Of a stretch of DNA of 64,000 nucleotides, positions 15,017-37,824 are shown in pieces. How positions within the stretch are numbered: position 1 is the stretch's first letter; each line of letters starts with the position of its first letter. The notes under the pieces were generated by a model. The model was not told the origin of the DNA. It made no database searches and worked only from the letters and a program-made list of their open reading frames with translations. The stretch comes from Escherichia coli (GTDB taxonomy: Bacteria > Pseudomonadota > Gammaproteobacteria > Enterobacterales > Enterobacteriaceae), in assembly GCF_030013205.1 (NCBI RefSeq), contig NZ_CP122648.1, one strand, 5' to 3'. The translations under genes were made by a program, and so were the position numbers.

Positions 15017-15032
15017 GGAATCGAACCTGCAA
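15017..15032. repeat. Second argW-derived fragment (matches the next 16 nt of the tRNA 3' region)
   Basis: GGAATCGAACCTGCAA is identical to argW 40654-40669; together with 14709-14723 it covers 30 nt of the tRNA 3' end, but the two halves are separated by 293 bp. Confidence 0.6.
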
Positions 15033-15107
15033 ATCAGGCAAGAAAAAACCGCCATCAGGCGGTTTGGTGTTCTTTCAGTTCTTCAATTCGAATATTGGTT
15101 ACGTCTG

Positions 15108-15327
15108 CATGCGCTATCTGCGCCCATATCATCCAGTGGTTATAGCAGTCGTTGATGTCCTCTGCTTCGATAAGGAGAAGAAATTCCCAATTACTCAAGA
15201 GCTATACGAGCGACTGGAAAGCGTCATCCATGATTACGATGGTGAAATCAGTTTATGCGAGGCGATTGGCACACTTGAATTGCTGAAGCAGTCATTGATT
15301 GAAGGCGCGAAAGAGTCCTTAGCCTGA
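15108..15327 (+). CDS. Hypothetical small phage protein upstream of the terS remnant
   Basis: Open frame ending ...ITQELYERLESVIHDYDGEISLCEAIGTLELLKQSLIEGAKESLA; start chosen at the first ATG, uncertain. Confidence 0.3.
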
Positions 15328-15344
15328 AATAACAACTAAGTGAG

Positions 15345-15555
15345 ATGAATATGGCAGCACCAAAGGGCAACCGATTTTGGGAGGCCCGCAGTAGTCATGG
15401 GCGAAATCCTAAATTCGAATCGCCTGAGGCGCTGTGGGCTGCTTGTTGTGAATACTTCGAGTGGGTAGAAGCTAACCCGCTATGGGAGATGAAGGCATTC
15501 TCGTATCAGGGTGAAGTGATACAAGAGCCTATCGCCAAGATGCGAGCGATGACCA
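15345..15555 (+). pseudogene. Small terminase subunit (P22 gp3-like), N-terminal about 70 codons only
   Basis: [71 protein letters not shown] matches the P22 gp3 N-terminus as I recall it; the rest of the 157-aa ORF is out-of-context read-through overlapping the next gene. Confidence 0.7.
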
Positions 15556-15657
15556 TTATCCAAACCGTATGCCTGTTGGTAGCGGTAATCAGTTGGCGAA
15601 GTGGAACGGTTGGAGTTACTTCCAGCGAAAGGAACCTTGCGATAACGGGAGCGAATA

Positions 15658-17076: not shown

Positions 17077-17097
17077 ATCGAAACTCAAGGAGTAGAT

Positions 17098-17631
17098 ATG
17101 TTAAGTGAAAACGCAAAAGATATCGAAGGATATGAAGGACTGTACGCCATCACTAATGATGGTAGAGTTTACTCGCATTCAAGAGTAAATTTGAGGGGAC
17201 GTCTTATTAAGGGTAGGTGGCTGAAGCATAATCATAACGTAAATGGATATAAGTATGTGTGTTTATATAAGGATGGCGTAAAAAAGAACATACTAATACA
17301 TAAGCTTGTTGCATCTCACTTTGTTGGTGGATTTGCTGAAGGGTTACAGGTAAATCATATAGATGGTGATAAATATAATAATAACTATCTAAATCTTGAA
17401 TGGGTTACTCCATCAGGAAACATCTCACACTCATATGGATTGGAGTCGAGAGGTAATGTAAAAGGAGAAAGGAATGGTAATTCTAAAATATCTAATGATG
17501 ATGTCATAAAGATAAAAGAAATGGTTGCCAATGGATTTCCTCAGTGTGAAGTTGCTAAATTATTTGGAATTCACAATTCAAAGGTTAGTAGAATTGTAAA
17601 TGGCAAGGCATGGAGGCATGTTAATGGCTGA
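17098..17631 (+). CDS. HNH homing endonuclease (HNH + AP2/NUMOD-like DNA-binding region)
   Basis: 177-aa ORF with [17 protein letters not shown] and HKLVASHFV...[11 protein letters not shown] (HNH) motifs; free-standing between gp10 and the tail needle gene. Confidence 0.8.
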
Positions 17632-18055
17632 TTCGAATCTCAACACCCCTGTTATTGTGCAGGCTACGCGGCTCGATACATCAATACTTCCACGCAATAT
17701 CTTCTCGCAGTCGTATCTGCTTTACGTTATCGCACAGGGCACTGATGTTGGTAACGTGGCTAACAAGGCCAACGAGGCCGGACAGGGCGCTTATGATGCA
17801 CAGGTCAGGAACGATGAGCAGGATGTGATTCTGGTCGATCATGAAGAAAGAATTCGTCAGCTCCGCATTGAAGTAGATGACCATGAAATCCGTATTGCTG
17901 CGAATACTGCGGCAATTGCAGCGCTGGATGTCAGACTAACCACGGCTGAAGGAGAAATAGTCACCTTACAGGCTGACGTCAGCGCTCTTGATGGCCGGGT
18001 TCCCGAGAAATACAAAGAGCAGAATTACAAGAAAAGGCTCTGGACAGACAGATAG
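17624..18055 (+). CDS. Tail needle protein (P22 gp26-like), N-terminal domain conserved, short divergent C-terminus
   Basis: [43 protein letters not shown]...[48 protein letters not shown] matches the gp26 N-terminal coiled coil; only 143 aa versus about 233 in P22. Confidence 0.7.
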
Positions 18056-18582
18056 CCAGAGAAAGCAATCAGTTAAAGCTCGAAGAGCTAAAACAGAAAC
18101 AGGCAGATGTTCGGCAAAAGGCTGACATAGCCCGCGCTGACAGGCAGGCCGCCGCTCAGGGTGCGGTTGATACGTTCAGCACCGCGCTTGATTCTCTCAA
18201 CGAGACAGAGCAAAGCCCCGGCCTTTCAAAAGCAGTAGGAATTCGCTCAGCGTTTCCGACAGTTCCTGGCTCTGATGCGGCTAACTTTGAAGCAAGACTC
18301 GACACCTTTAAAGCTCAAACTTTCCTCCCTATGGTGCAGTCCCTGAAGGGGATGGGGGCTCTTTCAGATGCTGAGGGTAAAAAATTATCTGATGCGGTTG
18401 GTGCTCTAAGTCCCAAAATGAGTGAAAAGGCTTTTCGTGACTCTATCGGAAAGATTCGAAATCAGCTTGAAAGCAAGTTGAGCACTGTTAAAAAACAGTT
18501 TGATTATCAGGAGCCAGTACAGAATACGCCAGGGCAACAATCTACTACTGGCAGTAACTTTTCTTCACTATGGGGTGATTAA
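17986..18582 (+). pseudogene. Start-less coiled-coil ORF fragment (possible 3' part of a tail needle or ejection gene after a deletion or frameshift)
   Basis: Frame open from 17986 with no ATG until 18331; encodes ...LKLEELKQKQADVRQKADIARADRQAAAQGAVDTFSTALDSL...; stop overlaps the start of the next gene (ATGA at 18579-18582). Confidence 0.3.
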
Positions 18583-20579
18583 TGGCTAAAGCATGGAAAG
18601 ATGTTATCGCCTCTCCACAGTATCAGGCGTTAGCACCAGAACAAAAAGCGCAGGCTCAGGAGCAATACTTCAATGAAGTCGTTGCCCCGCAAGCCGGAGA
18701 AAATGCAGAGCAGGCTAAGCAAGCTTTCTATGCTGCCTATCCATTGCCATATGTGCAGCAAGTGGAGACACAGCAACCAGTAGCACAGCAACAACCACAG
18801 CAAAGTGGATTTATGTCTGATCTTGGCGAAGCAGTAAAAGAGACTGGTCGCGGACTGGTGCAGGCTGGCGTGAACGTGGCAAACATACCTGCATCAGTTG
18901 CCGATGCTGTAACAAGCGCGGCGGCTTGGGCTGGCGGTAAACTCGGCATTGGCGATGGTACATATCAACCAGCGCCACGTGTAACAACGCAGGGATTAGA
19001 GCAGGACTTTGGCCTTCAGCAAGGCGCGCTGACTCCACAAACGACAGAGGGAAGGGTATTTGCTGAAGCATTGCCTTACCTCACTCCTGCTGGCGTTGAG
19101 AGAGCGGCAGCACAGGCACCAACACTTGCTGGTCGAATTGCTCATGGGGCAACTCGCCTTCTAGCAGAAAACGCAGTTGGATCACTTGCTGCAAATAGTG
19201 CGAAAGATGATGCGGAAGCACTCGCCACCGATTTGGGCGTTGGTGTGCTGGCTGGCGGTGCTATTAACGCTGCCGGACGTGGATTAGGTGCTGCTTATCG
19301 TGGAGTTCGTGGTGCTATTGCGCCAGAAGCGCAGCAAGCTATCAGATTTGCAGAGCGTGAAGGAGTGCCTCTGCACACCACAGACATGTTACAGCCTACT
19401 TCCCGCGTCGGAAAAATGGCGCAAACGACAGCAGAAAATATCCCCCTGGCGGGCACAAGCGGAATGAGAGCAACGCAACAGGAAGCGAGAAGCCAGTTGG
19501 TTCAGAGATTTGCTGATAAATTCGGTGAGTATGATCCAGCGGTTGTTATTGACAGCCTTAAAGCGAAAACATCAGGAATTCGTCGCGCTGCAGGAAATCG
19601 ACTGGAGCAGGTTCAGAATGCTATGGCGGGAATAAACATTCAGCCTGCAAGAGCAATTCAGCAGATTGATACAGAAATATCTAACCTGCAGAAGCTTGGT
19701 AAGGTTGCTGATAACGAGACTATTTCAAAACTTCAGTCCTATCGTGATGAGCTTGTTCGCAATGCTGGTCCTGATGGTCCGGTAAATCTGGATTTGAAGC
19801 AATTAAGCGATCTGCGCAGCCAGTTCAGAATGGACGTGAAGGGTGAGCGACCAGTGTTACCAAACCGTTCCGATGCTGCAATTCAGCGCGTTTACAAGGC
19901 AATGACCGACGATATCAATGGTGCCATTGGTCAGAATCTTGGCAACGATACTCTCCGTAAATATCAGCAGGCCAATGCCGTCTACGCTGACGAAGCCGCG
20001 AAACTAAAGAATACCAGGCTGAAGAATGTTCTCATGAAAGGCGATCTGACGCCGGAAGTTGTCAACAACATGCTATTCAGCAAGAACAAATCGGAAATTA
20101 AGACGCTGTATAACTCAGTTGGTCGTGTTGGCAGGGCGCAAATGCGCAATGGCATCATTGGAAAGGCGATGGAGAAATCTGGCGGATCCCCTGACCAGTT
20201 CCTTCGGCAGCTTAACATCCTGCAAAACCAGACTGGCATCACATTTAAGGGGCAGGACGCTGCTTATCTGAAAGGATTAAAAAACTACCTGCAATCTACG
20301 CAGCAGGCTGCAAAAGCGGCAGTAACAACACCCACAGGGCAGCAAACTATCCCGTTCATTATTGGGTATGGGACGGCAATGAACCCTGCGACAACTGGCG
20401 CAGCAGTAAGCTACGGACTTCTTACTCGCGCCTATGAGAGCGAGCCATTCAGAAATGCAATGCTCAGAATGGCAAACACCCCACGCGGATCAACAGCGTT
20501 TGAGAAAGCCATGCAGCAGGCACAAAAGGCAATTAACGCTCTGACGCAGGGGGCTAAGTCTGATGCGTTGTCAGAATAG
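18582..20579 (+). CDS. Putative phage DNA-transfer (ejection/injection) protein
   Basis: 665-aa Ala/Gln/Gly-rich protein in the position of the P22 ejection-protein genes (after the tail needle, before mnt); assignment is positional and compositional. Confidence 0.5.
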   Translation: MAKAWKDVIASPQYQALAPEQKAQAQEQYFNEVVAPQAGENAEQAKQAFYAAYPLPYVQQVETQQPVAQQQPQQSGFMSDLGEAVKETGRGLVQAGVNVANIPASVADAVTSAAAWAGGKLGIGDGTYQPAPRVTTQGLEQDFGLQQGALTPQTTEGRVFAEALPYLTPAGVERAAAQAPTLAGRIAHGATRLLAENAVGSLAANSAKDDAEALATDLGVGVLAGGAINAAGRGLGAAYRGVRGAIAPEAQQAIRFAEREGVPLHTTDMLQPTSRVGKMAQTTAENIPLAGTSGMRATQQEARSQLVQRFADKFGEYDPAVVIDSLKAKTSGIRRAAGNRLEQVQNAMAGINIQPARAIQQIDTEISNLQKLGKVADNETISKLQSYRDELVRNAGPDGPVNLDLKQLSDLRSQFRMDVKGERPVLPNRSDAAIQRVYKAMTDDINGAIGQNLGNDTLRKYQQANAVYADEAAKLKNTRLKNVLMKGDLTPEVVNNMLFSKNKSEIKTLYNSVGRVGRAQMRNGIIGKAMEKSGGSPDQFLRQLNILQNQTGITFKGQDAAYLKGLKNYLQSTQQAAKAAVTTPTGQQTIPFIIGYGTAMNPATTGAAVSYGLLTRAYESEPFRNAMLRMANTPRGSTAFEKAMQQAQKAINALTQGAKSDALSE

Positions 20580-20668
20580 CTTTTCAAACACCAGGAACGT
20601 GCAAAAACCAAATATGTAGAATGCAATATTCATCATATCTCTGTGCATAAATCCTCCGTAACGGATGG

Positions 20669-20932
20669 TTATCTGCTGTCTTTTTTATATAGCTCCTTGA
20701 GCGTATCAAAGACAATTTTCTTAACCATATCAGATTGTTGTTCTGCCATACGCTCTGCATCGTCAATGTAAACTGATGCAGAGCTTTGTTTATCCAATGA
20801 TTCTTCAATCGCTGCAATTATCTCTGAGTTCAGCGACCTGTTATTCATCTTCGCACGCAGCTTAATTTTCGCGTGGAGTTCATGCGGAAGTCTCAAGTGA
20901 AACTGCGCCTCATCGTATTTGCTGTACATCAT
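20669..20932 (-). CDS. mnt: Mnt/Arc-family ribbon-helix-helix repressor
   Basis: 87-aa product MMYSKYDEAQFHLRLPHELHAKIKLRAKMNNRSLNSEIIAAIEESL...DMVKKIVFDTLKELYKK resembles P22 Mnt; the longer 244-aa ORF in the track is an upstream read-through. Confidence 0.75.
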   Translation of the reverse strand: MMYSKYDEAQFHLRLPHELHAKIKLRAKMNNRSLNSEIIAAIEESLDKQSSASVYIDDAERMAEQQSDMVKKIVFDTLKELYKKDSR

Positions 20933-21064
20933 CAATGCCTCACCAAATGGGTGGAATGGCATCGTAAAACCCACTGTACAAATCAACAATCGTACCGTTT
21001 CGGTATGTAACAAATTCCAACCGTAGCCATGCTGCGGCCATTCCTTGTATCTGGAGCAAATTAA

Positions 21065-21734
21065 ATGACAGACATTACAGCCAATGTGATCGTATCGATG
21101 CCTTCGCAACTCTTCACTATGGCTCGTTCTTTTAAAGCCGTAGCCAATGGCAAAATTTATATCGGTAAAATTGACACTGACCCGGTAAATCCTGAAAACC
21201 AGATTCAGGTTTATGTGGAGAACGAAGACGGTTCTCACGTTCCTGTTGCACAGCCAATCATCATTAACGCCGCTGGTTATCCTGTATATAACGGACAGAT
21301 TGCCAAGTTCGTTACTGTGCAAGGCCATTCCATGGCTGTTTATGATGCGTATGGGGCGCAGCAGTTCTATTTTCCGAATGTGCTGAAGTACAACCCTGAT
21401 CAATTACGAACAATTCTTGAAGGAAGTATTATTGATTCTTCAGGCGATGTTTTTGGCTCTCCTGTGCGTGATTTTGAATATTTTGGCGCAGTAGGTGATG
21501 GTGTTGCCGATGACACTAATGCAATTAAATCCGCGGCTGCATGGGTTACTTCTGGAAATTATCGGCAAATAACTACCAGAGAACAAAAGATATATCGCGT
21601 AACATCAACCGTTGATTTTAATTTCGCTAACGGCCGCGGTCACTCGATTCTGATGAAGAGTCCAATCCGACCTGATGCTGGAACCGGCACTGCTTTTCTC
21701 ATTCAGAATACTCGAGACTCGGTATTCAATTTGA
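21065..21734 (+). pseudogene. Tailspike gene, 5' part (P22 gp9-type head-binding domain plus start of beta-helix), interrupted by IS1
   Basis: [58 protein letters not shown]... matches the P22 tailspike N-terminal domain; the frame is cut by the IS1 end at 21735. Confidence 0.85.
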
Positions 21735-21749
21735 GGTAATGACTCCAAC

Positions 21750-22253
21750 TTACTGATAGTGTTTTATGTTCAGATAATGCCCGATGACCTTGTCATGCAG
21801 CTCCACCGATTTTGAGAACGACAGTGACTTCCGTCCCAGCCTTGCCAGATGTTGTCTCAGATTCAGGTTATGCCGCTCAATGCGCTGAGTATAACGCTTG
21901 CTGATAACGTGCAGCTTTCCCTTCAGGCGTGATTCATACAGCGGCCAGCCATCCGTCATCCATACCACGACCTCAAAGGCCGACAGCAGGCTCAGAAGAC
22001 GCTCCAGTGTGGCCAGAGTGCGTTCACCGAAGACGTGCGCCACAACCGTCCTCCGCATCCTGTCATACGCGTAAAACAGCCAGCGCTGACGTGATTTAGC
22101 ACCGACGTAGCCCCACTGTTCGTCCATTTCAGCGCAGACAATCACATCACTGCCCGGTTGTATGCGCGAGGTTACCGACTGCGGCCTGAGTTTTTTAAGT
22201 GGCGGAAAATCGTGTTGAGGCCAACGCCAATAATGCGTGCACTGGCGCGACAT
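21750..22253 (-). CDS. insB: IS1 InsB' (transposase made as an InsAB' frameshift fusion)
   Basis: 167-aa ORF ending ...[18 protein letters not shown], overlapping insA in the -1 frame. Confidence 0.95.
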
Positions 22254-22447
22254 CCGACGCCATTCATGGCCATATCAATGATTTTCTGGTGCGTACCGGG
22301 CTGAGAGGCGGCGTAAGTGAACTGTAGTTGCCATGTTTTACGGCAGTGAGAGCAGAGATAGCGCTGATGTCCGGCGGTGCTTTTGCCGTTACGCACCACC
22401 CCGTCAGTAGCTGAACAGGAGGGACAGCTGATAGAAACAGAAGCCAC
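22172..22447 (-). CDS. insA: IS1 InsA
   Basis: 91-aa [46 protein letters not shown]... Confidence 0.95.
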
Positions 22448-22502
22448 TGGAGCACCTCAAAAACACCATCATACACTAAATCAGTAAGTTGGCAGCATCA
22501 CC

Positions 22503-23790
22503 CAATTTGAAAGTAGATGGGGGCGGGGACTCAAATGCGGATTACTATGTTCCTGGAAGCACAAACTTCGTTGACTATAGCCAGGCAGACCCGGCAGGCG
22601 CCCAGACAGCATTTTATATCAGGGGGGTCAGAAATTCTGATATTGATGTGACTGGGCTTAAATTTGCAGGGCGAGTTCTTCGCACCAATGCGTTGGACGT
22701 TGCCGCTGGTGGGATTATCAAAACATCGTTCAATACATTGCGCATTAAGACTGGGGACCAGGGGGCCGGTGAAACTGTACGTTGTGGTCAGGCGTATTAT
22801 CTACAAGGTGATGATTCTGCATGGGGCAAGATTGATCGCGCCTGGCTTAACTGGGACAGGTTTGGCAGTGTGCATTACAAACTAGTGGATGTTACCATTG
22901 GGAATATAGAAGCTGGTTTTGCAGGTAACGGCGGGCTTCAGTTTTATGGGATAGCTACCGCCCACATTGGAACTCTTTCCGTTGGTGATGAGACATTAAC
23001 TAACACTAATATCTTGTTCGCTAACTCAACGGACGGACAAGAATGTATTGCAGTACATATAGACAGAATCTTTACTGGCTCAGGTAATATCGGGGTAGAG
23101 CTAAGGGGTTCTAATGGGGGTGGTGGTGGTAATAGACCAAACTTTGATATCAACAGCATCTACGTAATTACGTGTGCAAACAGCAATGTCATATTGAACG
23201 GAACCAATAATAGCATCATAAGGAATATTCAATCTCAGGGCGGCGCTGTTGCCGTTAGATTGCAGCGGGTTATAAGAAACCTTCATCTCACTATTAATAG
23301 CTCCTCTGAATCAGGATCTAGCATCCTCGCAGACCCAGGTTCAAACATAAATAACTTGTATGTTAATGGCAGGAGTTACGGTAATACAGGAGCAGCTACT
23401 GTAGACCTTTTAGCCGCTACTGGGGGTATGCGCTGTGTGTTTGATGGATATACCGTGCGATCTGGAATGGCAGCGTACGCCATTCCAGTAACAAACTCTG
23501 TCACCATTCAAAATGGTGAAATAGATATATCATCTGGAGGTGTTGCTTTCTCGGTTGGAGTTCCAAGGGTAAACGTAAATAACGTTGGGTTTATTACTAG
23601 GAATAGAGGGTCAGGTTTAATTTTGGCAGGAAACCAGACCATTACTATCTCTCATGGTCTTGCACAACAGCCAACAGAAATATGTGTGACGCCATTATCA
23701 ACAGCAACTGGGTTTAGAGTGCTTAATATTACAGCGACATCATTTGATGTGAGATTATCCTCTGCATTAGGTGGTTCGGATCCAGCTTAG
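22503..23790 (+). pseudogene. Tailspike gene, 3' part (receptor-binding beta-helix domain)
   Basis: Frame continues directly from the 5' part once IS1 and one TSD copy are removed (...DSVFNL|KVDGGGDSNADYY...); Gly/Asn/Thr-rich beta-helix-like repeats. Confidence 0.8.
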
Positions 23791-23828
23791 ACATTCAATT
23801 GGTTTGCATCATGTGAGTATCATTAAAA

Positions 23829-23860
23829 TATTAAGGGGGCGCGCCCCCTTAATATTTTTG
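23829..23860. terminator. Bidirectional intrinsic terminator between tailspike and the glycosylation cassette
   Basis: GC-rich palindrome AAGGGGGCGCGCCCCCTT flanked by A-run and T-run. Confidence 0.6.
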
Positions 23861-23861
23861 C

Positions 23862-24794
23862 TCACTTACCAATACTTAAGTAGAAAAGAGATTTCATCTC
23901 TCTTCTGCTTACAGTTATTGCCTGCAATATGATCCCGCACATAAATGACAGGACTGAAATAAGCATAATTGCACTTGCTGCGACTGCCGTTGGCAATCTT
24001 GGTACCAGTCCTGTTTCTGCAAACTCTTTAACGATAGGCAGGCCAAGAGATAGAGAAATAACCGCAAAAAAGCATGAAAGTATTCCGAAGAAATATATTG
24101 GTCTTTCAATTGCATAAAGCTTTATTATAGTCTTCAGGATTCTGAATCCATCTTTGTAAGTTGAAAGCTTACTTTCAGAACCATCAGGTCTGCTTCCATA
24201 ATATGTATCTACTTCACCATATTTCATACGTAATTCCAGAGCATGAATCGTCAGCTCTGTTTCAGTCTCAAATCCTCTTGACTGGCTTGGAAAAGATTTT
24301 ACATATCGTTTTGTAAAAGCTCTATATCCTGAAAGCATGTCAGTAAATTCACCTTTAAATATTGTCGTAACAGTGCCAGTTAAAACTCTGTTTCCAAACC
24401 TGTGACCAGATCGATATGTTTTTATAGACCCATCATCTTTTCTACATCCAACAACCATATCTAGGTCATCATCAATAAGTTTATCGATGAGTTTTTTTAC
24501 AGCTGCTGCCTCATAGGTATCATCGCCGTCAACCATGATGTAAATGTCAGCATCAACATCAGCAAACATTCGTCTAACAACGTTACCTTTCCCTTTTAAG
24601 TTAACGTGCTTAACTATAGCTCCAGACTGTTTTGCTACATCTCCGGTAGAGTCTGTGGAATTATTGTCAAATACGTAAATATCACCTTCCGGAAGGAACC
24701 TTCTAAAATCTGTGACGACATTAACTATAGAAAGCGCCTCATTATGGCAAGGTATTATAACTGCAACTTTAAAACCTCTGTAGTTATTCATCAC
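23862..24794 (-). CDS. GT2-family polyprenyl-phosphate glycosyltransferase (GtrB-like architecture: GT-A domain plus two C-terminal TM helices)
   Basis: 310-aa ORF with ...AVIIPCHNE... and ...MVDGDD... (DxD) motifs and a hydrophobic C-terminus; N-terminus diverges from canonical GtrB. Confidence 0.7.
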   Translation of the reverse strand: MMNNYRGFKVAVIIPCHNEALSIVNVVTDFRRFLPEGDIYVFDNNSTDSTGDVAKQSGAIVKHVNLKGKGNVVRRMFADVDADIYIMVDGDDTYEAAAVKKLIDKLIDDDLDMVVGCRKDDGSIKTYRSGHRFGNRVLTGTVTTIFKGEFTDMLSGYRAFTKRYVKSFPSQSRGFETETELTIHALELRMKYGEVDTYYGSRPDGSESKLSTYKDGFRILKTIIKLYAIERPIYFFGILSCFFAVISLSLGLPIVKEFAETGLVPRLPTAVAASAIMLISVLSFMCGIILQAITVSRREMKSLFYLSIGK

Positions 24795-24801
24795 ATAACC
24801 T

Positions 24802-26160
24802 CTACATGTAATATCTAGTAATAATGGAAGGAATCATTGCGTTCAACGAAACAATTAACATTATAACTGTGATAATGTACGCAATCATTTGTTTTTTCTT
24901 GTTCTGGCTCATTAACAAGAAGGCGGAAATAATTACAGGAATCACAAAGTATCGCCCCTGAATACCAATTATAACATCGGTAGGAAATTTTGAATATTGC
25001 ACAAGTAATGCGCAAAAAATCAATGCTGCTGACCCAAGTGACACTATAGCCACTGATAAGGAAAAGAATATATGTTTTTTGATTTCCGAATAAGAAATAG
25101 ATAATGATATTAATGCAACTATTACTACAAAAGAAACAATATAAAGATAGGTTGGCATCCATATGTCTAGCCACCCCAACTTCCCTACAAAACTCTTGAA
25201 GTAGAATGAACTGCGACCGTAATCAGAAATGGTATTGTAAATTATACTTAAAATTTCAAATGGATGTTTTAAGTAATATGCTATAACCTCGCCTTGACTT
25301 ATTCCAGGGTGGTTTACCCCTCCATCCACGGTTATTGATATTGTTAATCCTATCCATCCTAGAGATAGCACTGCAGCAAAAAATGGAGGTAACAATCTTA
25401 TTTTTGATTGTGAATAATATGCCGCAATGAATGGTAAAATCAACACTGGTATAAGGTTAGCCCTGCTTGAAACTAGAATAAATGCAATAAATGAAATAAA
25501 TATTAAGCAGGTGTCTCCAATCTCCTTTTTCATTGCCCCTCTTGCAAGTAAGCACATCATAAGAACAGACAATGATGTTGTTATACCATCTATAGTTGTT
25601 GCAATGAACTGAAAAAGCATCATCGGCATGACCATAACACATAAAGCAAGTGCTGGTATTCTATATATGCTATTGGCATATATAATGATTGAGATGCAAG
25701 TTATAAATGCCAGAAATCGCGATATTTTATAAGTGTCTAGGATGGATAAATTAAAAGCTTTACCAAACATAATCCCTATTGACTGAGGGATGTATACAGC
25801 GGGGAAGTAAAATGCTGTGTTTGGTATCTCTTTGTATACTTTGTTATCCCCCCAATTTTTCATATCAATGCCTAACATCATTGAATTGGATATTTTCCCA
25901 ACATGTCCATTATTAAATATTTCAAATGAGTCATTTAGAGACTTATCAATGTAACCACCTGACTTAAAACCATCGTTATTATTTAGGGTTATTACCCCGT
26001 TAGTAAGAAGATAAGCGCGTGAAAAATGATGTGGCTCATCAGGGCTCATAAATGGTGGAGTTACAGAACTTATCGCAATATATAAAACAAAAGAAAAGAT
26101 AAATAAAAATAATTTTTTATGTAATGATTTCATTTGGCAATCACTTATCATTAAAAACAA
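24802..26160 (-). CDS. Polytopic membrane glycosyltransferase (GT-C/GtrC-like, serotype-specific O-antigen modification candidate)
   Basis: 452-aa AT-rich multi-TM ORF between gtrA and the GT2 gene; 20-bp overlap with gtrA. Confidence 0.55.
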   Translation of the reverse strand: MFLMISDCQMKSLHKKLFLFIFSFVLYIAISSVTPPFMSPDEPHHFSRAYLLTNGVITLNNNDGFKSGGYIDKSLNDSFEIFNNGHVGKISNSMMLGIDMKNWGDNKVYKEIPNTAFYFPAVYIPQSIGIMFGKAFNLSILDTYKISRFLAFITCISIIIYANSIYRIPALALCVMVMPMMLFQFIATTIDGITTSLSVLMMCLLARGAMKKEIGDTCLIFISFIAFILVSSRANLIPVLILPFIAAYYSQSKIRLLPPFFAAVLSLGWIGLTISITVDGGVNHPGISQGEVIAYYLKHPFEILSIIYNTISDYGRSSFYFKSFVGKLGWLDIWMPTYLYIVSFVVIVALISLSISYSEIKKHIFFSLSVAIVSLGSAALIFCALLVQYSKFPTDVIIGIQGRYFVIPVIISAFLLMSQNKKKQMIAYIITVIMLIVSLNAMIPSIITRYYM

Positions 26161-26500
26161 TAAATTTTGCGTACAAGAAGCCTATAAATAAGCTTATTGC
26201 TGAAAATATAATGGCGCTAAGCATAGGTGGCGTATAAAGTATGTCTCCAACCCATCCAACGCAAGAGCTGAGTATTCCCATAAATCCCACATAGAGTAGA
26301 TATCGCATTGTTGATGTTCTTGACATAAATGTGAATCTGGCATTTGCAAAGAATGAGAAGCTTACTGCAAAGATAAAACCGGCTAAATTAGATAACGCTT
26401 GGGTTGCGTGCATTGAATAATAACAAAAAGCAAATATAACCCAATGTATGATTGTGTTGATGATGCCAATAGATGTGTACTTAGCGAACAATTTTAACAT
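26141..26500 (-). CDS. gtrA: GtrA-family flippase-like small membrane protein
   Basis: 119-aa ORF MLKLFAKYTSIGIINTIIHWVIFAFCYY...FFANARFTF... matches the GtrA family. Confidence 0.85.
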   Translation of the reverse strand: MLKLFAKYTSIGIINTIIHWVIFAFCYYSMHATQALSNLAGFIFAVSFSFFANARFTFMSRTSTMRYLLYVGFMGILSSCVGWVGDILYTPPMLSAIIFSAISLFIGFLYAKFIVFNDK

Positions 26501-26650
26501 TTTTTTGTCAACTAACTCTTAAAGGGGGGAGTCTATCACTTTAGTCTCAATCGATCGATACTTGCTGTGGTTGATGGGGCAAAACTGAGACACAAAAAGC
26601 TTTGCACTGGATTGCAAGGCTTTGTGCACTTCGATAGTGGTTAAGGTGGA

Positions 26651-27808
26651 TCACTCCACCTTTTCATCAATCCAGTCCGCCCACCACTGCATCATCTCCC
26701 GGCGCTTATCGAGATACTGAGCATGGTTGTAAATCCCGCGCACAGATCCGCCGTTGGCATGTGCCAGTTGCACTTCAATAGCATCAGCAGGCCATTCGTG
26801 CTCGTTCATAATCGTGCTGAATTCATGCCTGAATCCGTGACCGCTTTCCAGACCTTCATAGCCGATTTGTTTGATCACAAGCAGTACAGCGTTCTCGCAG
26901 ATTGGCTTCTTCTTATCGTTGCGCCCGGCAAAAACAAACTCTGATACTGGTTTAGTGATTGAGCTTAGTGTAGTGAGAAGTTCAACCACCTGGTCTGACA
27001 TCGGGACAACATGAATTTTGCGTCCCTTCATCACACTGGCGTCGATGGTGATAATCCTGTTTTCAAAATCGACGTTCTTCCATAGCATGGAACGAAGCTC
27101 TTTTGTTCTTAGGGCTGTGTAGCGTAAAACTTTGGTCGCAATGAGCGATACGATACTTCCTGAAAATGTTGCAAGTGCTTTGTTGAATGCCGGGATCTGG
27201 TCGGCAGGTAAAAACGGGAAGTTCTTCTTGCGGTATCCCTTCATGGCGTCAGCAAGGTCAGGTGCCGGGTTATATTTAGCCCTACCAGTAACAATAGCGT
27301 AACGGAAAACCTCGCCGCATCTTCTGCGTGCTTTGTTGGCTCGCTCCATTGCACCGCGATCTTCAAATCTGCGGATTACTTCCAGAAGTTGCATCGGCTC
27401 AATATCCTGAATTTCAAGGCCGCCGATGATAGGTAAAATGTCGTCATCAAACATTTTTGCAAGTTCATTTGCATAGCCTACTGACCAGACTTGCTTCTTG
27501 TGCTCGTACCATTCCTTGTAAATGGCGCTAAAGGAATTGTTGTTAGACGAAGCCTTTTTCGCCTTTACCGGATCGATGCCAACCGAGATGTCTTTCCTCG
27601 CAGTCCATGCTTTATCCCTTGCCTCTTGCAAAGTCATAAGCGGATATTTTCCGACGGTCAGGATTTTCTCCTTACCGTCAATCTTGTAGCGAAGCTGCCA
27701 TACCTTTTTCCCTGATACAGGGACATAAAGATACAGGCCATTACCATCGAGTAGGCGGTATGGTTTTTCTTTCGGCTTTGCTGCTTCAATCTGCTTAACG
27801 GTGAGCAT
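26651..27808 (-). CDS. intS: Tyrosine integrase, IntS/CP4-57 type (DUF4102 arm-binding N-domain)
   Basis: Start taken at MLTVKQIEAAKPKEKPYRLLDGNGLYLYV...; C-terminal ...HGFRHEFSTIMNE... catalytic region; adjacent to an argW-derived att copy. The track's upstream GTG start is judged less likely. Confidence 0.85.
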   Translation of the reverse strand: MLTVKQIEAAKPKEKPYRLLDGNGLYLYVPVSGKKVWQLRYKIDGKEKILTVGKYPLMTLQEARDKAWTARKDISVGIDPVKAKKASSNNNSFSAIYKEWYEHKKQVWSVGYANELAKMFDDDILPIIGGLEIQDIEPMQLLEVIRRFEDRGAMERANKARRRCGEVFRYAIVTGRAKYNPAPDLADAMKGYRKKNFPFLPADQIPAFNKALATFSGSIVSLIATKVLRYTALRTKELRSMLWKNVDFENRIITIDASVMKGRKIHVVPMSDQVVELLTTLSSITKPVSEFVFAGRNDKKKPICENAVLLVIKQIGYEGLESGHGFRHEFSTIMNEHEWPADAIEVQLAHANGGSVRGIYNHAQYLDKRREMMQWWADWIDEKVE

Positions 27809-27969
27809 GGGTAAAAATCCGGTGGGTAAAATTATTTTATCCACTTTTTACCCGTCATGGAGTGCGGCTGTCAACGATCTGACGCGAACCATGACGAACC
27901 GTGAATATACGGAAGGCTTGATATTCAGGGTATTTTGCGGACTGGTACGGATGGGAGCGAACTGATAAA

Positions 27970-27991
27970 TGGTGTCCCTGCAGAAATCATC
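27970..27991. repeat. argW-derived att copy at the junction of the two tandem islands
   Basis: TGGTGTCCCTGCAGAAATCATC versus argW TGGTGTCCCCTGCAGGAATCGA (one missing C, two mismatches). Confidence 0.7.
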
Positions 27992-28205: not shown

Positions 28206-28454
28206 ATGCGCACACAGGTTGTATTGCAAAAATGGGGTAACAGCATTGCCCTTCGACTAACGGGAAACCTTAAAACCGTTCCGGGTTTTTCAGTGGGTGA
28301 TATCGTCAACGTTGAAATTAGTGAAAAAGGGCTTTTTGTAGAAAAGCCTGCACGCCGTCGCCTGAGTGAAGCCGAACTACTCGCCGGGATAACGCCAGTT
28401 ACAGCGCACGCTGACGAAATTGCCACCCCATTCAATGAGGAGGTTGATTACTGA
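28206..28454 (+). CDS. MazE/PemI/ChpS-family antitoxin (AbrB/SpoVT fold)
   Basis: 82-aa ORF MRTQVVLQKWGNSIALRLTGNLKTVPGFSVGDIVNVEISEKGLFVEKP... Confidence 0.8.
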   Translation: MRTQVVLQKWGNSIALRLTGNLKTVPGFSVGDIVNVEISEKGLFVEKPARRRLSEAELLAGITPVTAHADEIATPFNEEVDY

Positions 28455-28798
28455 TGTTTGTACCTAAGCGTGGTGATATTTGCTGGCTGGATTTTGAGCC
28501 GCAGAAAGGAAAAGAGATCGGAAAGTATCGCCCGGCACTCATACTATCCCATGAGCAATATAACCGACTCACCGGGCTTGTCATATGCTGCCCCATAAGT
28601 ACGAGCATACGAAATGCTCCCACAGAAGTTCCGGTAACAAATCTGGACGCCCCCAGCGTGGTAGCAACCACACTCATTCAAACCCTTGACTGGCGTCAGC
28701 GGAAAGCGCGCTTAATCACAGAGGCAGAAGATGGGGTATTTAATGATGTGCTTGAAAGAGTCATTACTCTGATTGGTGGAGAGCATCTGCTTAAGTAA
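28454..28798 (+). CDS. MazF/PemK-family endoribonuclease toxin
   Basis: 114-aa ORF MFVPKRGDICWLDFEPQKGKEIGKYRPALILSHEQYNRLTGLVICCPISTS..., start overlapping the antitoxin stop. Confidence 0.8.
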   Translation: MFVPKRGDICWLDFEPQKGKEIGKYRPALILSHEQYNRLTGLVICCPISTSIRNAPTEVPVTNLDAPSVVATTLIQTLDWRQRKARLITEAEDGVFNDVLERVITLIGGEHLLK

Positions 28799-31272: not shown

Positions 31273-31455
31273 CTATGAAGTTTTCGACTTCCTGCGCTTA
31301 GTAATGCGTACAAACGACTCAAGCGTACAAAAACAAGCCCCACACTCAATATTGTTGCACTGGTAATACGTTCTGTAGATGTTTTGTTCGTGTTCTTCCA
31401 ACGAACGACCACGGGTGCGAGCTGAAGCGCCACAGGCCGGGCAAGGGAAAGACAT
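31273..31455 (-). CDS. Ogr/Delta-family zinc-finger late-gene transcriptional activator
   Basis: 60-aa ORF MSFPCPACGASARTRGRSLEEHEQNIYRTYYQCNNIECGACFCTLESF... with the CPxC...RT.R...YxQCxNxxCxxxFxTxES pattern of P2 Ogr. Confidence 0.8.
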   Translation of the reverse strand: MSFPCPACGASARTRGRSLEEHEQNIYRTYYQCNNIECGACFCTLESFVRITKRRKSKTS

Positions 31456-31817
31456 ATCGCGCTCCTCTTACTGGCGTGAAATTTAACCTATTATATCTTC
31501 CGTTGCCTCCTCTGGCTGTATCAAATAAATCCGCGATGGTCGCTGCGTATTACGCGCAGACACACCGTTCCCATGCTCACTCCTCACATTCCCCGTATCA
31601 ATTCTCTCTTGCCGTAAGAACGGCTCTGGCTGGCGATAAAACTAACCCGGTCAGGCATTCCCGCAGTCTTTAGCGAAAGATGTAATTTACCCCCTGAAAC
31701 GCGGGCTGTTCCCCCGTCACCTGCGCGCGAAAAACTCACCGTTTTTTGTGCACGCACGAAATCGCCCTCCGGGCGCGCCAGTACCGGGCCGGATGGGCAA
31801 AAAGTTACTCTAAAAAA

Positions 31818-31845
31818 TTGTGCAAATTTGTGCACTTTTGTGCAG
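31818..31845. promoter_or_regulatory. Three direct TTGTGCA repeats with 10-bp phasing (operator-like)
   Basis: TTGTGCAAATTTGTGCACTTTTGTGCAG; a fourth TTGTGCAC at 31746-31753. Confidence 0.45.
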
Positions 31846-32059
31846 ATGAACAACAGCGTCAAAAAGAGTGCTTTTGAGAGATTTTTTATGGCAACTGCGC
31901 CGCGTGTATTACGTTTTTACCATCCCCGCCGCGCATGTACATACTTCATTTTTCTGCCAAACAACAGGGCAACTCCCCGTGACTGACAGCCCCAAAAAAT
32001 CAATGATTAATGTTGCGTCTTTGTTAGAGGTCAGATCAGTTGTTTTGGGACTCTGCCTC

Positions 32060-32383
32060 AAAATCCGGTAGGGGGTGCGGAAACGGGTTACAAAGGTTAC
32101 ACCCCCCTAAAACACACTATAATCATATGATTTTAAAACATATTTCTTGTAACCTTTTTGAGGTTACAGAAGGTTACACGAGGTTACAGCTCTCAAAAAC
32201 AGATTAATTATCAATTAATTATAAATTTAACCTGTAACCAACAGTAACCACTACATAAAGGTTACATGTAACCCTGTTGTAACCCGTTTGTAACCTTTTA
32301 AATTTATTATAATATATTGATATATAATACGTTTTTCTGTTTGTAACCTTTGTAACCCGTTTCCGCACCCCCCCCCGGATTTT
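32060..32383. repeat. Block of about 14 GGTTACA/TGTAACC repeats flanked by near-perfect inverted repeats of about 40 bp (candidate attP-like or origin region)
   Basis: Left arm AAAATCCGGTAGGGGGTGCGGAAACGGGTTACAAAGGTTACA (32060-32101) is the reverse complement of the right arm (about 32339-32383); AT-rich core with both-orientation GTAACC repeats. Confidence 0.6.
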
Positions 32384-32628
32384 AGCGCGACCCTTTAAAA
32401 TGTTAATTAAACTCACTAACTCTGTATCACTCTCATTAACTCTCTATGATTGAAATGTATCTCACTGCTGTTTAACTCTTTCTGATAATCAAGAAAGGAG
32501 AGCAAAAAACTGATGGCGCTACCGCTGCAATATGGCCACCATCGCATTGCTGTTACCGTTGGCTTTGGCCAACAAAAAAGGCCAGTGGAAAACTGACCTC
32601 TTTTGCTGTGAATGTAGTGTTCTGCGGG

Positions 32629-33630
32629 TTACTCTACTGGCTCTTTTTGTTCAGTGAATGCCATGTTAGCTATCGGGTTAAACCTCATGGCATCCGCCAG
32701 ATAGTCGGGGGAAAAATGCGCATAAGTCATCGTTTGCTGGATAGTCGCATGTCCAAGAATCCGTTGTAATGTAACGATATTCCCACCGTTAATCATAAAG
32801 TGTGTGGCAAATGTATGACGCATGACATGCGTAGCCTGCCCCTTCGGTAAATCCGGCTTCACCTCCTGAAGGATCTCCCGGAACTTCAGATAATCAACCT
32901 GATACAACAACCCCGTCCGGCGGGTCTTAATCAGCGGCACGACCGAATCAGCCACAGGAACCGAACGGGATTTTCCGTTTTTGGTGTTAAAGAACGTCAC
33001 CCGGTTGCCAATGATGTGCTCTCCACGTAGTTCCGATGCTTCACTCCATCGGGCACCAGTAGAAAGACACAGAATGGCAACACGACGCGCATCACCCTCC
33101 AGTCGCTCAAGAAGCCGCTCAATCTCATCATCAGAAAGAAAGGCCATCTCTGTATTCTGAATTTTTAGCTTGCGTATACCGCGTACAGGGTTCGGGTTGT
33201 GAAAGACCTCAGCTTCAATCAGCACCGTGAACATGGTAGACAGAACGCACAAGTCACGATTAATGCTGGATGGCATTAAGCCGGCCTGTAATTTCTCTGA
33301 CCGATACTCAAGCATAAATTTTTGCGTCATCTGGCTGGCACGCGGATCTCCCATTTCACGAATCACTTTCTCCATCCGGATCCTGTAGGTATCACCGTAA
33401 GCCTGGTTACGGCCATCAAGCATCCACCATATATCAAGCAGCTCTGATAATCTCCGTCGATCAGCAGGTTTAGCCAGCCATGGGTTGTTATGGAAATTCT
33501 GTAAAATATGTTCTTTGAAGGCCTCCGCACTCCCTTTCCTGACAAAAATTTTACGTATCCGTTTGCCGTACGCCCCTTGGGGCCTGATATCGAGCAGCCA
33601 TCGCCCATCATCCATCTTTCTGATCGACAT
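32629..33630 (-). CDS. P2-type tyrosine integrase
   Basis: 333-aa ORF MSIRKMDDGRWLLDIRPQGAYGKRIRKIF...LSELLDIWW...INRDLCVLSTMFTVLIEAE...ILCLSTGARWSEA...GQATHVMRHTFATHFMINGGNIVTLQRILGHATIQQTMTYAHF matches P2 Int in length and motifs. Confidence 0.8.
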   Translation of the reverse strand: MSIRKMDDGRWLLDIRPQGAYGKRIRKIFVRKGSAEAFKEHILQNFHNNPWLAKPADRRRLSELLDIWWMLDGRNQAYGDTYRIRMEKVIREMGDPRASQMTQKFMLEYRSEKLQAGLMPSSINRDLCVLSTMFTVLIEAEVFHNPNPVRGIRKLKIQNTEMAFLSDDEIERLLERLEGDARRVAILCLSTGARWSEASELRGEHIIGNRVTFFNTKNGKSRSVPVADSVVPLIKTRRTGLLYQVDYLKFREILQEVKPDLPKGQATHVMRHTFATHFMINGGNIVTLQRILGHATIQQTMTYAHFSPDYLADAMRFNPIANMAFTEQKEPVE

Positions 33631-33632: not shown

Positions 33633-36302
33633 TTAAGCCCCCTCCTTGTTACTAAATATCCAGCATTTCAATACCTCCTTCTCTCTGGCCTCGGCTATTC
33701 CCCTCCCGGCGTTCGCCTGTCTGGATACCTCGCTACGGACGGGCTTGTATCCAATCAGCGATCGAGAACGGCCAGCCTTGAGAAGCTTTATCATTTCGGG
33801 ATTGGTTTGGGTCTTCACGTGGTGAACGGCGGCAACCTGCTCAAGTTGCGGGATACTGACGGCAAACTCATTCTGCCGTCCCTTGCCAAAATGATTTACG
33901 CCGTATGCTGTGATGCCGTCCAGATAGTCGAACGCCTCCCAGAACGCCATCACTTCCGGCAAGTCATCCATTACCGCTTTAGCCTGCTCCTCTGCCATTC
34001 GCTCCAGTTCCAGACATGTGGCATCAAGCCATTCATCCGGGATATCAATAACGCATTTCAGCGCCCTGACCAGTGCAATTAGTTGCGCGTGATTTTTGGC
34101 AATACGCTGATGGCGAATATTCTCGCAACCGTAAAGGCGGGTTGTTTCAGAATCCGAGAGTGCCATAAACAGATCCATAATCGCCCGCTCCTGGCTTACT
34201 GCCCGATGGATAAAACCTGATACCTGCTCAACGGGGTAAAGCTCCAGCCGTTTTGCTGCCAGTCGGCTATCTGGTGAGTGGCGTTTTTTATCGGTGTATA
34301 TACGTACCAGACGCTCGATAATTGCCGATGAGGCGTTTACCGTGGCATTCTGCGCAATCACGACAGCCCCTTTAAAAACGGGGTCATATGTGGCGTTATC
34401 ATTAGTTTTAACACCACGTACCCCAATACCACCGCCGTTATAGAGGCTTTTCAGGTTATCAAAGTCAAACGCACCTCTTTTTTGCGCATTGTCCCCCCGG
34501 TCTGCTTCAATCAGAACAACAGGTAATCCGGCGACCTGTCCAAAAGTTCGCTTCCAGCCTGATTCCGATCCTTTGGTTGGATCAACACCTTCATAGTTGT
34601 CACGGCCACACAAACGCCAACAAAAATCAATCAGCGTTGTTTTACCCGTTCCAGGCTCTCCGGTAATCTCAAGAAAAGGGTAAGACGTGTTTTTCTGCCT
34701 GATTTGTTCGCTGAACAACGAACCCAGCCAGAAGGCCAGGGTAATAATTCCCTTTTCACCAAAAGCCAGCCAGAGATCTTCCACCCAGGATATTGTGAAT
34801 TTATCCGGTTTTTTATAGTTAATCTGCAATATTGGTTTTTTATTCAATGGTTTTGCGTTTATGCCATCAATTTCAAAATAATCCTCTTCATTGATTTCGT
34901 AGGTTTTACCATTACAAACCGCGACATCATTAAACAGCCACGCGCCAATCTCTTTGTTGTATCCGATAAAATCCTGACCGATAACATTTTTTATTGCGGG
35001 AAGGTCATTTTTTATTAATGCATCAAGGTGCGCAGTCGTTCCGGTATAAATACCGCCTTTTGCCACATGCAACAGGCGTTTTTTAAATTCAGATGCGGAT
35101 GTTAATTGTCCTGATGTAAAGGTGTTTTTCACCGTCGCACCATCCGGGAACGTAACACGGAAGTAATACCATGCTTCATCCGTGTCATTGTTTCGAATGT
35201 AATAAAGCGGCGCCGGGTTACAGTTTGCGATTTCTTTTACAGCGCCGGATTCCTTAAGTGCAATTTTGCGCGCTTCATCTTCGTCAACATTTCGCTCATT
35301 TATGACGCGTTCAACAGCCTTCATATGGCGCTCAATATCCAGTTTGAACCAGAAAACACGGTTATCAAAAGTAAAATGAAATTCCTTTCGCTCACGAAAG
35401 GAAAACATTATCAGCGCCTTATCTCTCGGAGATTTTGCCAGCAATAAATCACCGTAATAACGGTATCTTTTCACATCATGGCCACGCAGCTTTCCGGCGA
35501 TGTGTAAATCATTCCAGTCGCGTTTATTGCTGTTTTTTCCTGGTAACGCCGCTGCCGTTCTCCAGCCGTCTTCGGCGCTGCGTTCTGCATGTTTTTTCGC
35601 ATAACGCTCACCCGCACGCCCGTTATCCAGCGCCCACACGATAACCGGACGGGGATTATCCCCGCACAGCTTCGCCAGCTCTTCCAGCGCCTTATCAGGG
35701 TAGTTTACGGCAGACATGACAGAAACGGCCGCAATGCCATTCTGGTTAAGGCTGATGGCATCAAAGATACCCTCACAAATCCAGATTTCTTTGGCCTTGC
35801 TTAAATCATCTCCCGGATAAGCCCACCACAACCCCTTGTAGCTGCCGGAAAAATTCGCCTTGCGCGCGAAGCGTTCCGGTCGGTCTATGATGCGCTCCCA
35901 CCACACGCCGTCAGCCAGTGTAAAACGCACAGTAGCGGCCTGTTCGCCGCTTTCCTTGTCCTGGTATCGCTCCTGAGTAAATGCTCCCTTCAGTGGCTCC
36001 ACAGCAATATTGCGTGCTTCCAGAAGATAAGCTGTCGCCGCTGCGTATGGATTGTCTTTCGTGCTGATATAGCGATCTGACCATGATGAAAACACATCCG
36101 GGTAAAGTTCTTTGGTCAACAGGTCTGTACCGCATTTATTTTCGCGCCCACAGTGCACGATGTACGGCCTTTCAAGGCTGGTAAAGAGCTCCTTCTTTCC
36201 ACATTGCGGACAAACACCATACCGGAGGTAGTTATTTTCTTCTTTGAAGTTGTAATCACGGATAAGACGGTTAATAATCTCTTTTCTGGTGTTATGTTTC
36301 AT
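33633..36302 (-). CDS. Primase-helicase replication protein (Cys4 zinc finger + TOPRIM primase + P4/D5-type NTPase)
   Basis: 889-aa ORF with CPQCGKK...HCGRENKCG, TOPRIM-like WICEGIFDAISL and ALDNGRAGERYA, Walker A GEPGTGKT and Walker B VVLIEAD. Confidence 0.75.
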   Translation of the reverse strand: MKHNTRKEIINRLIRDYNFKEENNYLRYGVCPQCGKKELFTSLERPYIVHCGRENKCGTDLLTKELYPDVFSSWSDRYISTKDNPYAAATAYLLEARNIAVEPLKGAFTQERYQDKESGEQAATVRFTLADGVWWERIIDRPERFARKANFSGSYKGLWWAYPGDDLSKAKEIWICEGIFDAISLNQNGIAAVSVMSAVNYPDKALEELAKLCGDNPRPVIVWALDNGRAGERYAKKHAERSAEDGWRTAAALPGKNSNKRDWNDLHIAGKLRGHDVKRYRYYGDLLLAKSPRDKALIMFSFRERKEFHFTFDNRVFWFKLDIERHMKAVERVINERNVDEDEARKIALKESGAVKEIANCNPAPLYYIRNNDTDEAWYYFRVTFPDGATVKNTFTSGQLTSASEFKKRLLHVAKGGIYTGTTAHLDALIKNDLPAIKNVIGQDFIGYNKEIGAWLFNDVAVCNGKTYEINEEDYFEIDGINAKPLNKKPILQINYKKPDKFTISWVEDLWLAFGEKGIITLAFWLGSLFSEQIRQKNTSYPFLEITGEPGTGKTTLIDFCWRLCGRDNYEGVDPTKGSESGWKRTFGQVAGLPVVLIEADRGDNAQKRGAFDFDNLKSLYNGGGIGVRGVKTNDNATYDPVFKGAVVIAQNATVNASSAIIERLVRIYTDKKRHSPDSRLAAKRLELYPVEQVSGFIHRAVSQERAIMDLFMALSDSETTRLYGCENIRHQRIAKNHAQLIALVRALKCVIDIPDEWLDATCLELERMAEEQAKAVMDDLPEVMAFWEAFDYLDGITAYGVNHFGKGRQNEFAVSIPQLEQVAAVHHVKTQTNPEMIKLLKAGRSRSLIGYKPVRSEVSRQANAGRGIAEAREKEVLKCWIFSNKEGA

Positions 36303-37304: not shown

Positions 37305-37824
37305 TGCACGCCTCCCGGATACGAATACGGGCAACAGAGACCAGACGGGATGCCGGAAGCAGGGCGCGCGCTTCGCGCTCACTGGCGGCGGTAACGGTAT
37401 GAAGGCGGATATTTTTACCGTGGCACTGCATAAAGCGCCAGATAAAATCAGGGCGTGTTGATATAGCCATTTTGGCGGCTCCTTTGTCTAATTTACGGAG
37501 TCTCGCCAGCACGCTGCTAAACATGGTGGCGGGACGTAACAGGGTTAGCAGACTGGTGACAAAGAAACCAGCAGGCCTTACGGCCTCCCCATTACGCCCC
37601 GCCATAATACGGGAAAGGGTGGTATTACGGGCACAAAAAAACCGCATTACGGAAATATAGCGGCTACCCGCTTTGTCAATCAGGCTGCTAAACCCGGCAC
37701 CCGCTTTATGAGGTGCGGGCAAACGATACGCCATGACAAAAAAGCGAGTCAAGCAATATTGCAAATTATTTTTGCGTGATTGCGCTGAGTAATTGATTTT
37801 TAAGAGTAAAAAAGCCATAATCAT
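37297..37824 (-). CDS. Hypothetical protein (basic, Arg/Ala-rich)
   Basis: 175-aa ORF, first gene downstream of alpA; true start may be the internal MAYRLPAPHKAG... Confidence 0.35.
   Translation of the reverse strand: MIMAFLLLKINYSAQSRKNNLQYCLTRFFVMAYRLPAPHKAGAGFSSLIDKAGSRYISVMRFFCARNTTLSRIMAGRNGEAVRPAGFFVTSLLTLLRPATMFSSVLARLRKLDKGAAKMAISTRPDFIWRFMQCHGKNIRLHTVTAASEREARALLPASRLVSVARIRIREACNV

Follow-up and report, generated by a model that had tools for sequence, protein, structure and literature searches.

The origins of the SaPI elements are found just downstream of the rep gene, where oppositely pointing iterons flank an AT-rich centre; these iterons are recognized through a C-terminal winged helix, and two hexamers are thought to load (PMC9371898). 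In the satellite P4, the initiator is the alpha protein, which is characterized by a zinc finger, a Toprim domain, a P-loop NTPase and a C-terminal DNA-binding part. It binds the type I octamer TGTTCACC, and the crr region, with ten octamers in both orientations, directly follows the alpha gene. The ori and crr (two 120-bp direct repeats) of P4 are separated by ~4.5 kb. The theta plasmids (pSC101, R6K, RK2, pPS10 and F/P1) employ winged-helix Rep proteins and usually display direct repeats of 17-22 bp, with a small Rep that recruits the host DnaB. Origins with short dyad-symmetric repeats around or next to AT-rich DNA are also served by the large T antigen of SV40/polyoma and by papillomavirus E1. 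There, two oppositely oriented helicase rings provide for bidirectional unwinding, although the origin-binding fold is unrelated and the viruses are eukaryotic.

Described here is a 324-bp block of iterons closed by inverted arms, positioned at 32060..32383 of a 64-kb window, the term by which we refer to the whole stretch of E. coli DNA that was analysed. On the basis of its arms, its iteron count and an architecture shared with related loci, the block as a whole is proposed to be the cis-acting replication origin of a P4-like satellite, or at least the region in which the initiator binds and loads. We place the probability of this reading at roughly 0.78. The resemblance to a SaPI origin lies in the location of the block downstream of its putative initiator gene, in the iterons that flank an AT-rich centre, and, if the prediction holds, in a C-terminal winged helix of the initiator, a primase-helicase of 889 residues. 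There are also differences. The 889-residue protein shows no detectable sequence relationship to SaPI Rep/PriRep, and the element is a P4/P2-type satellite of Gram-negative hosts. Each iteron of the block measures 7-9 bp, and there are 13-15 of them; in the element of the window the initiator gene and the block are separated by an inserted recombinase gene, and G-run and YCGGAAA border elements form inverted arms of 30-42 bp in this family.

P4 represents the same kind of element, namely a satellite with a C4 RNA, an icd-like sequence, alpA, delta/ogr and cos, and the domain types of its alpha protein recur in the 889-residue protein, the C-terminal DNA-binding part being a prediction of this study. 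Whereas the P4 repeat is the octamer bound by alpha, that of the block is GGTTACA, and in place of two regions the satellite carries one dyad-symmetric block only. The island displays no DNA similarity to P4. When the same k-mer scan was run on the P4 genome, the annotated crr and ori emerged as the top two clusters. In contrast to those of the theta plasmids, the repeats of the block are short (7-9 bp) and symmetrically placed, and the putative initiator has its own primase and NTPase. A plasmid search revealed four distant primases only and no block, and thus no plasmid that carries the primase-block module or uses it as a replicon. Literature searches on GGTTACA origins and on the origins of P4-like satellites likewise returned no description, and no database record of the block was found.

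The block lies within a 12.6-kb island that is integrated at tRNA-Arg(CCT) (40640-40714), the other boundary, near 27972, being a degenerate repeat of the 3' end of the tRNA. Starting from the tRNA, the island contains the terminal integrase (39199-40503), alpA (38378-38599), a C4-type antisense RNA and isrK (37522-37716) beside an Icd-like ORF, several small ORFs, the primase-helicase gene (33633..36302, minus strand), a gene for a P2-type tyrosine recombinase (32629..33630, minus strand), and the block. The recombinase gene, which is not coupled to the block, ends 245 bp from it, and the primase gene is 1.3 kb away. Past the block follow a cos-like region (31679..31845), ogr/delta (31273-31455, minus strand), a gene for a 236-aa protein, one for a P2-family capsid-like protein, and a mazEF-like pair. 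Genes for partition are absent. With its C4 RNA, icd-like ORF, alpA, delta/ogr and cos-like region, the island is a P4-like satellite. A BLAST comparison of P4 cos with the island gave no match; the cos-like region was identified via P2/186-like prophages, where it shows ~80% identity to the region beside the portal gene. The sequence-only reading of this locus had correctly named the recombinase and ogr as the flanking genes. The analogy that it drew with the int-attP-ogr order of P2 is weakened by the presence of the cos-like region between the block and ogr.

The two arms of the block, at 32060-32101 and 32342-32383, are 42 nt each, are 95% complementary, and are separated by 240 nt, in keeping with the earlier estimate of the intervening region. 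They had been described as exact over ~40 bp. In fact they contain two mismatched positions, CCGGTAGGGGG versus CCGGGGGGGGG, and an exact core of 31 nt (GGGGGTGCGGAAACGGGTTACAAAGGTTACA). The left arm (plus strand) begins with a G-run, continues with TGCGGAAAC, and ends in two iterons at 32086 and 32095, 9 bp apart. This order is that of the arm consensus from 14 diverse loci, which consists of the G-run, YCGGAAA and two iterons. The right arm (minus strand) is the reverse complement of the left, with iterons at 32342 and 32351 followed by GTTTCCGCA and a C-run.

Between the arms, two inner sets of iterons alternate with three AT-rich spacers. The left spacer (32102..32147) contains the conserved motif CATATGATTTTAAAA. 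It is followed by the left inner set (32148..32188, plus strand), which is formed by a reversed copy at 32148 and direct copies at 32162, 32172 and 32182 with a spacing of 10 bp. The central spacer (32189..32232) is the candidate unwinding region; its TATCAAT motif is present in all loci of the E. coli group, and a match to the IHF consensus, TATCAATTAATTA, occurs at 32209-32221 on the plus strand. The right inner set (32233..32295, minus strand) comprises a copy at 32233, the variant AGTAACC at 32243, a palindromic pair at 32260 (plus) and 32267 (minus), and copies at 32278 and 32289 with a spacing of 11 bp. The right spacer (32296..32341) harbors a second match to the IHF consensus, TATCAATATATTA, at 32310-32322 on the minus strand. 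The consensus used for the scan was WATCAANNNNTTR, and 34 matches to it were observed in 26 blocks of the family versus ~1 expected. The layout as a whole displays approximate two-fold symmetry, the iterons are phased at 9-11 bp, and the G+C content is 35%.

Thirteen exact copies of GGTTACA/TGTAACC in both orientations are located between 32086 and 32357, and two further copies with one mismatch each are found at 32226 and 32243. The sequence-only reading had counted about 14 copies in both orientations, and that number stands; it had assigned all of them to the region between the arms, whereas four reside in the arms themselves. Throughout the 64-kb window the heptamer occurs 22 times against an expectation of 6.7 ± 2.9, and 22 copies were reached in none of 100 shuffles. 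A scan of the 64 kb for the densest 330-bp interval returned the block, with 15 sites at one mismatch or fewer; the runner-up contained four. The block is thus the sole GGTTACA cluster both in the island and in the window.

A mechanically called 65-aa ORF with a GTG start (32219-32416, minus strand) overlaps part of the block. The block is non-coding all the same, because this ORF is unannotated in the identical RefSeq genome and its frame is broken by a 10-bp indel in relatives. RefSeq carries no annotation of the block, and an Rfam search produced no match inside it, with C4 and isrK being found elsewhere in the island. Scanning the block for promoters and terminators was uninformative, since the number of matches equalled that in shuffled sequences. 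Single-strand folding yielded z = -12. Such a value is a trivial consequence of the inverted repeats and does not point to a function as a hairpin.

Related loci were sought in IMG/VR, in GTDB genomes, in contigs with primase homologues, and in the RefSeq genomes of E. coli. The architecture of the block recurs in ~45 of them, from E. coli, Yersinia, Salmonella, Providencia-like prophages, metagenomic phages and the P2-like phage ESSI2_ev239. In each case a G-run, YCGGAAA and two iterons are inverted at either end of a region of ~300 bp that contains inner iteron sets and AT-rich spacers, and all ~45 loci encode a homologue of the 889-residue primase-helicase with 41-100% identity. In the 26 loci that were tabulated (primases 52-100% identical to that of the window), the block is located downstream of the primase gene. 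Eleven of the 26, including the Salmonella satellite L019 and Providencia-like P2-type prophages, have a block that starts 185-800 bp past the primase stop codon, with no recombinase gene in the interval. Terminal arms are retained in all 26, with 25-33 of 34 positions complementary and a loop of 221-277 nt.

Beside primases of 41-51% identity the same architecture is written in other repeats. Both L048 and L057 have GGTAACA iterons, L093 has GGTAAY in DNA of 60% G+C, and the block of ESSI2_ev239 (28375-28670) has CRTCACA repeats. In L057 and ESSI2_ev239 the block is several kb from the primase gene. No block was detected in L012 and L013, which encode distant primases, or in the scanned part of phiCTX. 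A contig search with the primase protein as the single query returned one locus only, and a search of a phage collection gave matches to the integrase gene alone and not to the block.

Among the 14 diverse loci, the two arms of one locus are on average 83% identical, versus 68% for arms of different loci. The inverted repeat is for this reason best read as the same ordered elements placed at both borders. When the alignment columns of the E. coli group are compared, with type C set aside, 90% of the iteron columns are invariant versus 53% of the other columns of the block (Mann-Whitney p ~1e-6), which suggests that the repeats are under selection.

The repeats of the family fall into dialects, namely RGGTTACA, CGGTTACA, GGTCACA, CGTTACA, GGTAACA and CRTCACA. 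Three of these occur in the E. coli group: A (RRGGTTACA, that of the window), B (RCGGTTACA) and C (GGTCACA). Type B blocks show CGGTTACA throughout, and in dialect C, represented by L007/L103, ~10 of 13 repeats have undergone the same T-to-C change from GGTTACA to GGTCACA. The primases of this group are 91-99% identical over residues 1-700, whereas their last 100 residues (790-889) form three clusters, with at most 72% identity between clusters. Dialect and cluster correspond in 19 of the 19 E. coli-group loci; the independent switches behind this covariation are few (there are three dialects in this group and two in the Providencia-like group), and the sequences are related.

The recombinase encoded between the primase and the block behaves differently. 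It likewise falls into three allele clusters, with 50-59% identity between clusters, but these are discordant with the dialect. Loci with cluster 1 include all three dialects (A, B and C); conversely, clusters 1 and 2 are both found beside dialect A, and clusters 1 and 3 beside dialect B. For example, the recombinases of L005 and L106 are 56-59% identical to that of the window, and the iterons are the same, whereas L007 has a recombinase that is 96% identical and yet GGTCACA iterons. The discordant gene, which lies between two matched partners, has thus been reshuffled by recombination while the primase C-terminus and the repeats stayed together. Such a retained match is the pattern expected if the C-terminal domain reads the repeats. 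In the Providencia-like group (GGTTACA versus CGTTACA), fixed differences between the primases affect the N-terminal half as well as the extreme C-terminus, and the assignment of dialect determinants to individual residues is not robust with so few independent switches.

The primase-helicase itself has a zinc finger-like N-terminus, a Toprim domain at residues 172-268 and a Walker A motif at residues 548-555. It belongs to PHROG 1139 together with orf37 of phiCTX. Its likeness to P4 alpha is at the level of motifs only (BLASTP E 6e-4 over 27 residues), and its assignment to helicase superfamily 3 is that of a weak DUF5906 match alone (E 0.078). The C-terminal ~109 residues (33636..33962, minus strand), whose cluster tracks the dialect, are predicted to adopt a winged-helix fold. 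AlphaFold models of residues 700-889 and 781-889 have pLDDT values of 92.7 and 93.0, respectively, and both end in the order helix, strand, helix, helix, strand, strand, the predicted winged-helix topology.

The directly observed anatomy, conservation, linkage to the primase gene and matching of dialect to primase C-terminus suggest how the block might work as an origin. The winged-helix domain at the C-terminus of the 889-residue protein would recognize the 7-9-bp iterons, RRGGTTACA in this element. The two inner sets, spaced at one helical turn and running in opposite directions, flank the central AT-rich spacer, with the outer pairs contributed by the arms, and such a layout would allow two helicase rings to load in opposite orientations as a double hexamer. 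The rings would then melt the AT-rich DNA and the same protein would prime synthesis, leading to bidirectional replication. Bending by IHF at the two conserved consensus sites may assist. That the arms form an inverted repeat would be due to the symmetric placement of the same ordered elements, a G-run, YCGGAAA and two iterons, at the two borders, rather than to their being ends of a transposon, and the G-run/CGGAAA element may have a role of its own in the origin. Of the three readings originally put forward (an attP-like site, an origin bound by the adjacent primase-helicase, or a MITE), the origin is the one that the comparative evidence supports.

The favourite among those three had been the attP-like site, and more generally the block might be a substrate of the adjacent P2-type tyrosine recombinase, be it attP-like, a multimer-resolution site or an invertible segment. 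The gene for that enzyme does end only 245 bp away, attP regions also contain IHF-consensus sites and short repeats, and invertible switches are flanked by inverted repeats. The 11 loci in which the block follows the primase without an intervening recombinase, and the discordance between recombinase alleles and dialects, nevertheless make a recombinase substrate very unlikely. A P2-type attP in particular, which would neither accompany nor covary with its integrase in these loci, was rejected on the additional ground that it would be split to the element ends on integration, whereas the integrated island, which bears its own terminal integrase, contains the block unbroken in its middle part. 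It is also unlike the separate attP of ESSI2_ev239, in which three pairs of TGTGGAC repeats directly follow the integrase (26742-26965) at a distance of 1.6 kb from the block; no TGTGGAC repeats occur near the recombinase of the window. Inversion was not seen, given that in 59 of 66 E. coli genomes the flanks and the block together form a single collinear alignment, and that all aligned loci have a single orientation. A fimS-like switch was rejected on these grounds. The MITE reading would make the block a mobile insertion unrelated to the biology of the island, and its 42-nt terminal inverted repeats, its size of 324 bp and its lack of coding capacity are what such an insertion would present. 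A MITE would be expected in many copies. Among 5426 complete E. coli genomes, megablast instead finds the block in 17 and blastn in 66, and once per island, every match whose surroundings were examined belongs to the same island family, and none is on a plasmid. Its borders are devoid of a target-site duplication, none of the related loci displays an empty site, and the arms are built from the iterons of the interior and shift dialect jointly with them. The probability of a MITE is accordingly negligible.

A closer competitor is an array that binds the primase-helicase or another protein of the element but does not initiate, such as a crr-like enhancer, a copy-number or incompatibility (handcuffing) locus, or a partition-like centromere. 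P4 offers a precedent, inasmuch as it needs the second iteron region crr, which directly follows alpha and does not serve as the start site. A locus of this type would also fit the Providencia-like prophages, in which complete and partial blocks of two dialects stand in tandem, and the two satellites of one strain, which differ in dialect. On the other hand, the block is the only iteron cluster of the island and of the window, and for this reason no separate origin is visible to which it could be an accessory. The island is without partition genes, and the symmetric layout with AT-rich spacers suits an unwinding site. A non-initiating array is, in our estimation, improbable, and replication initiation remains the preferred function of the block.

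A broader version of the origin reading, which is rather unlikely, holds that the block is a portable origin cassette common to P2-like phages as well as to P4-like satellites. In such a cassette the G-run and YCGGAAA, which are deeply conserved, would serve as a second signal, for helicase loading or priming, that a conserved part of the primase-helicase would recognize, while the C-terminal winged helix would read the variable iterons. Dialect switching (T to C, G to C and T to A within the heptamer) might then create mutually compatible replicons. Satellites could thereby share a cell with one another and with helpers whose primase is of the same family, or could take over the initiator of a helper. 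The tandem two-dialect blocks of the Providencia-like prophages and the co-resident E. coli satellites would then be traces of an arms race.

If the block is indeed an origin, it would define one for the widespread primase-helicase family PHROG 1139, which more broadly includes the phiCTX-type P2-like phages and many P4-like satellites of the Enterobacterales, and for which no published origin was found in the literature searched. The matched dialects of initiator and iterons, which differ by single bases, would provide a natural series for studying the evolution of origin specificity, and for asking by what means satellites and helpers in one cell evade each other's replication proteins or make use of them. 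The combination of a G-run, YCGGAAA and two iterons, inverted at ~300 bp, is moreover a non-coding landmark for annotation that should prevent such blocks from being misread as att sites or MITEs. What is new is the family itself, the symmetric border element, the single-base dialects matched to the C-terminus of the initiator, the strain with two co-resident satellites of different dialect, and the prophages with tandem two-dialect blocks. That an origin may lie beside its initiator gene is well established and familiar from satellites, phages and plasmids, and the conceptual gain is to that extent incremental.

The co-resident satellites are those of E. coli ETEC1732 (NZ_CP122823.1), in which two members of the block-bearing family, L110 at 4.29 Mb and L111 at 1.54 Mb, are found. 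In one, dialect A iterons go with a primase C-terminus of type A; in the other, both are of type B, an occurrence that is compatible with dialects acting as compatibility groups. In the Providencia-like P2-type prophages L020 (6790-7560), L031 (5610-6400) and L032 (6330-6800), origin-like cassettes of two dialects are arranged in tandem, such that a full block of the CGTTACA type is flanked by the right half and by an internally shortened copy of blocks of the GGTTACA type. These tandem cassettes may be remnants of module exchange. Among the window, L003-L011, L102-L107, L110 and L111, recombinase alleles have been swapped between primase backbones that are otherwise 93-98% identical. All of the islands examined encode a separate terminal integrase as well, the site being argW here and lying between hpt and gcd in other strains.

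The non-coding stretch from the block to the recombinase stop codon (32384-32628) is conserved in all recombinase allele clusters. It contains the direct repeats CTCACTAACTCTGTAT and CTCATTAACTCTCTAT at 32412-32447, and a third copy of TTAACTCT is positioned at 32472. On the other side, ~215 bp from the block, three TTGTGCA repeats with a spacing of 10 bp (31818-31847) are associated with the cos-like region, and sequence similar to that region is present in many E. coli genomes. Elsewhere in the island, Rfam matches at 37522-37729 to the C4 antisense RNA (79.7 bits) and isrK (52.1 bits), together with a sub-threshold match to the c4-a1b1 target, identify a P4-type RNA immunity region adjoining the Icd-like ORF.

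Downstream of the ogr/delta gene, which is homologous to P4 delta, the segment 28842-30823 encodes a protein resembling the P2-family major capsid protein (423 aa in the PGAP annotation; TIGR01551 at 131 bits, below the cutoff) and, adjoining it, the 236-aa protein, which has no family match. This pair suggests a way of redirecting capsid assembly other than that of P4. The end of the satellite is occupied by a MazE/MazF-like toxin-antitoxin pair (28206-28798), which lies between the att repeat and the capsid-like gene. P4-like satellites reportedly carry variable defence cargo at the matching position.

A second element (14709-27975) is integrated in tandem at the same tRNA-Arg site. It encodes IntS, GtrA, GtrB and a DUF2142 protein, and represents an O-antigen glucosylation module similar to CPS-53. 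Its other boundary is a further partial copy of the tRNA 3' end at 14709, and within it an IS1 copy (insA/insB-like ORFs, 21750-22447) interrupts tail-fibre-like genes.
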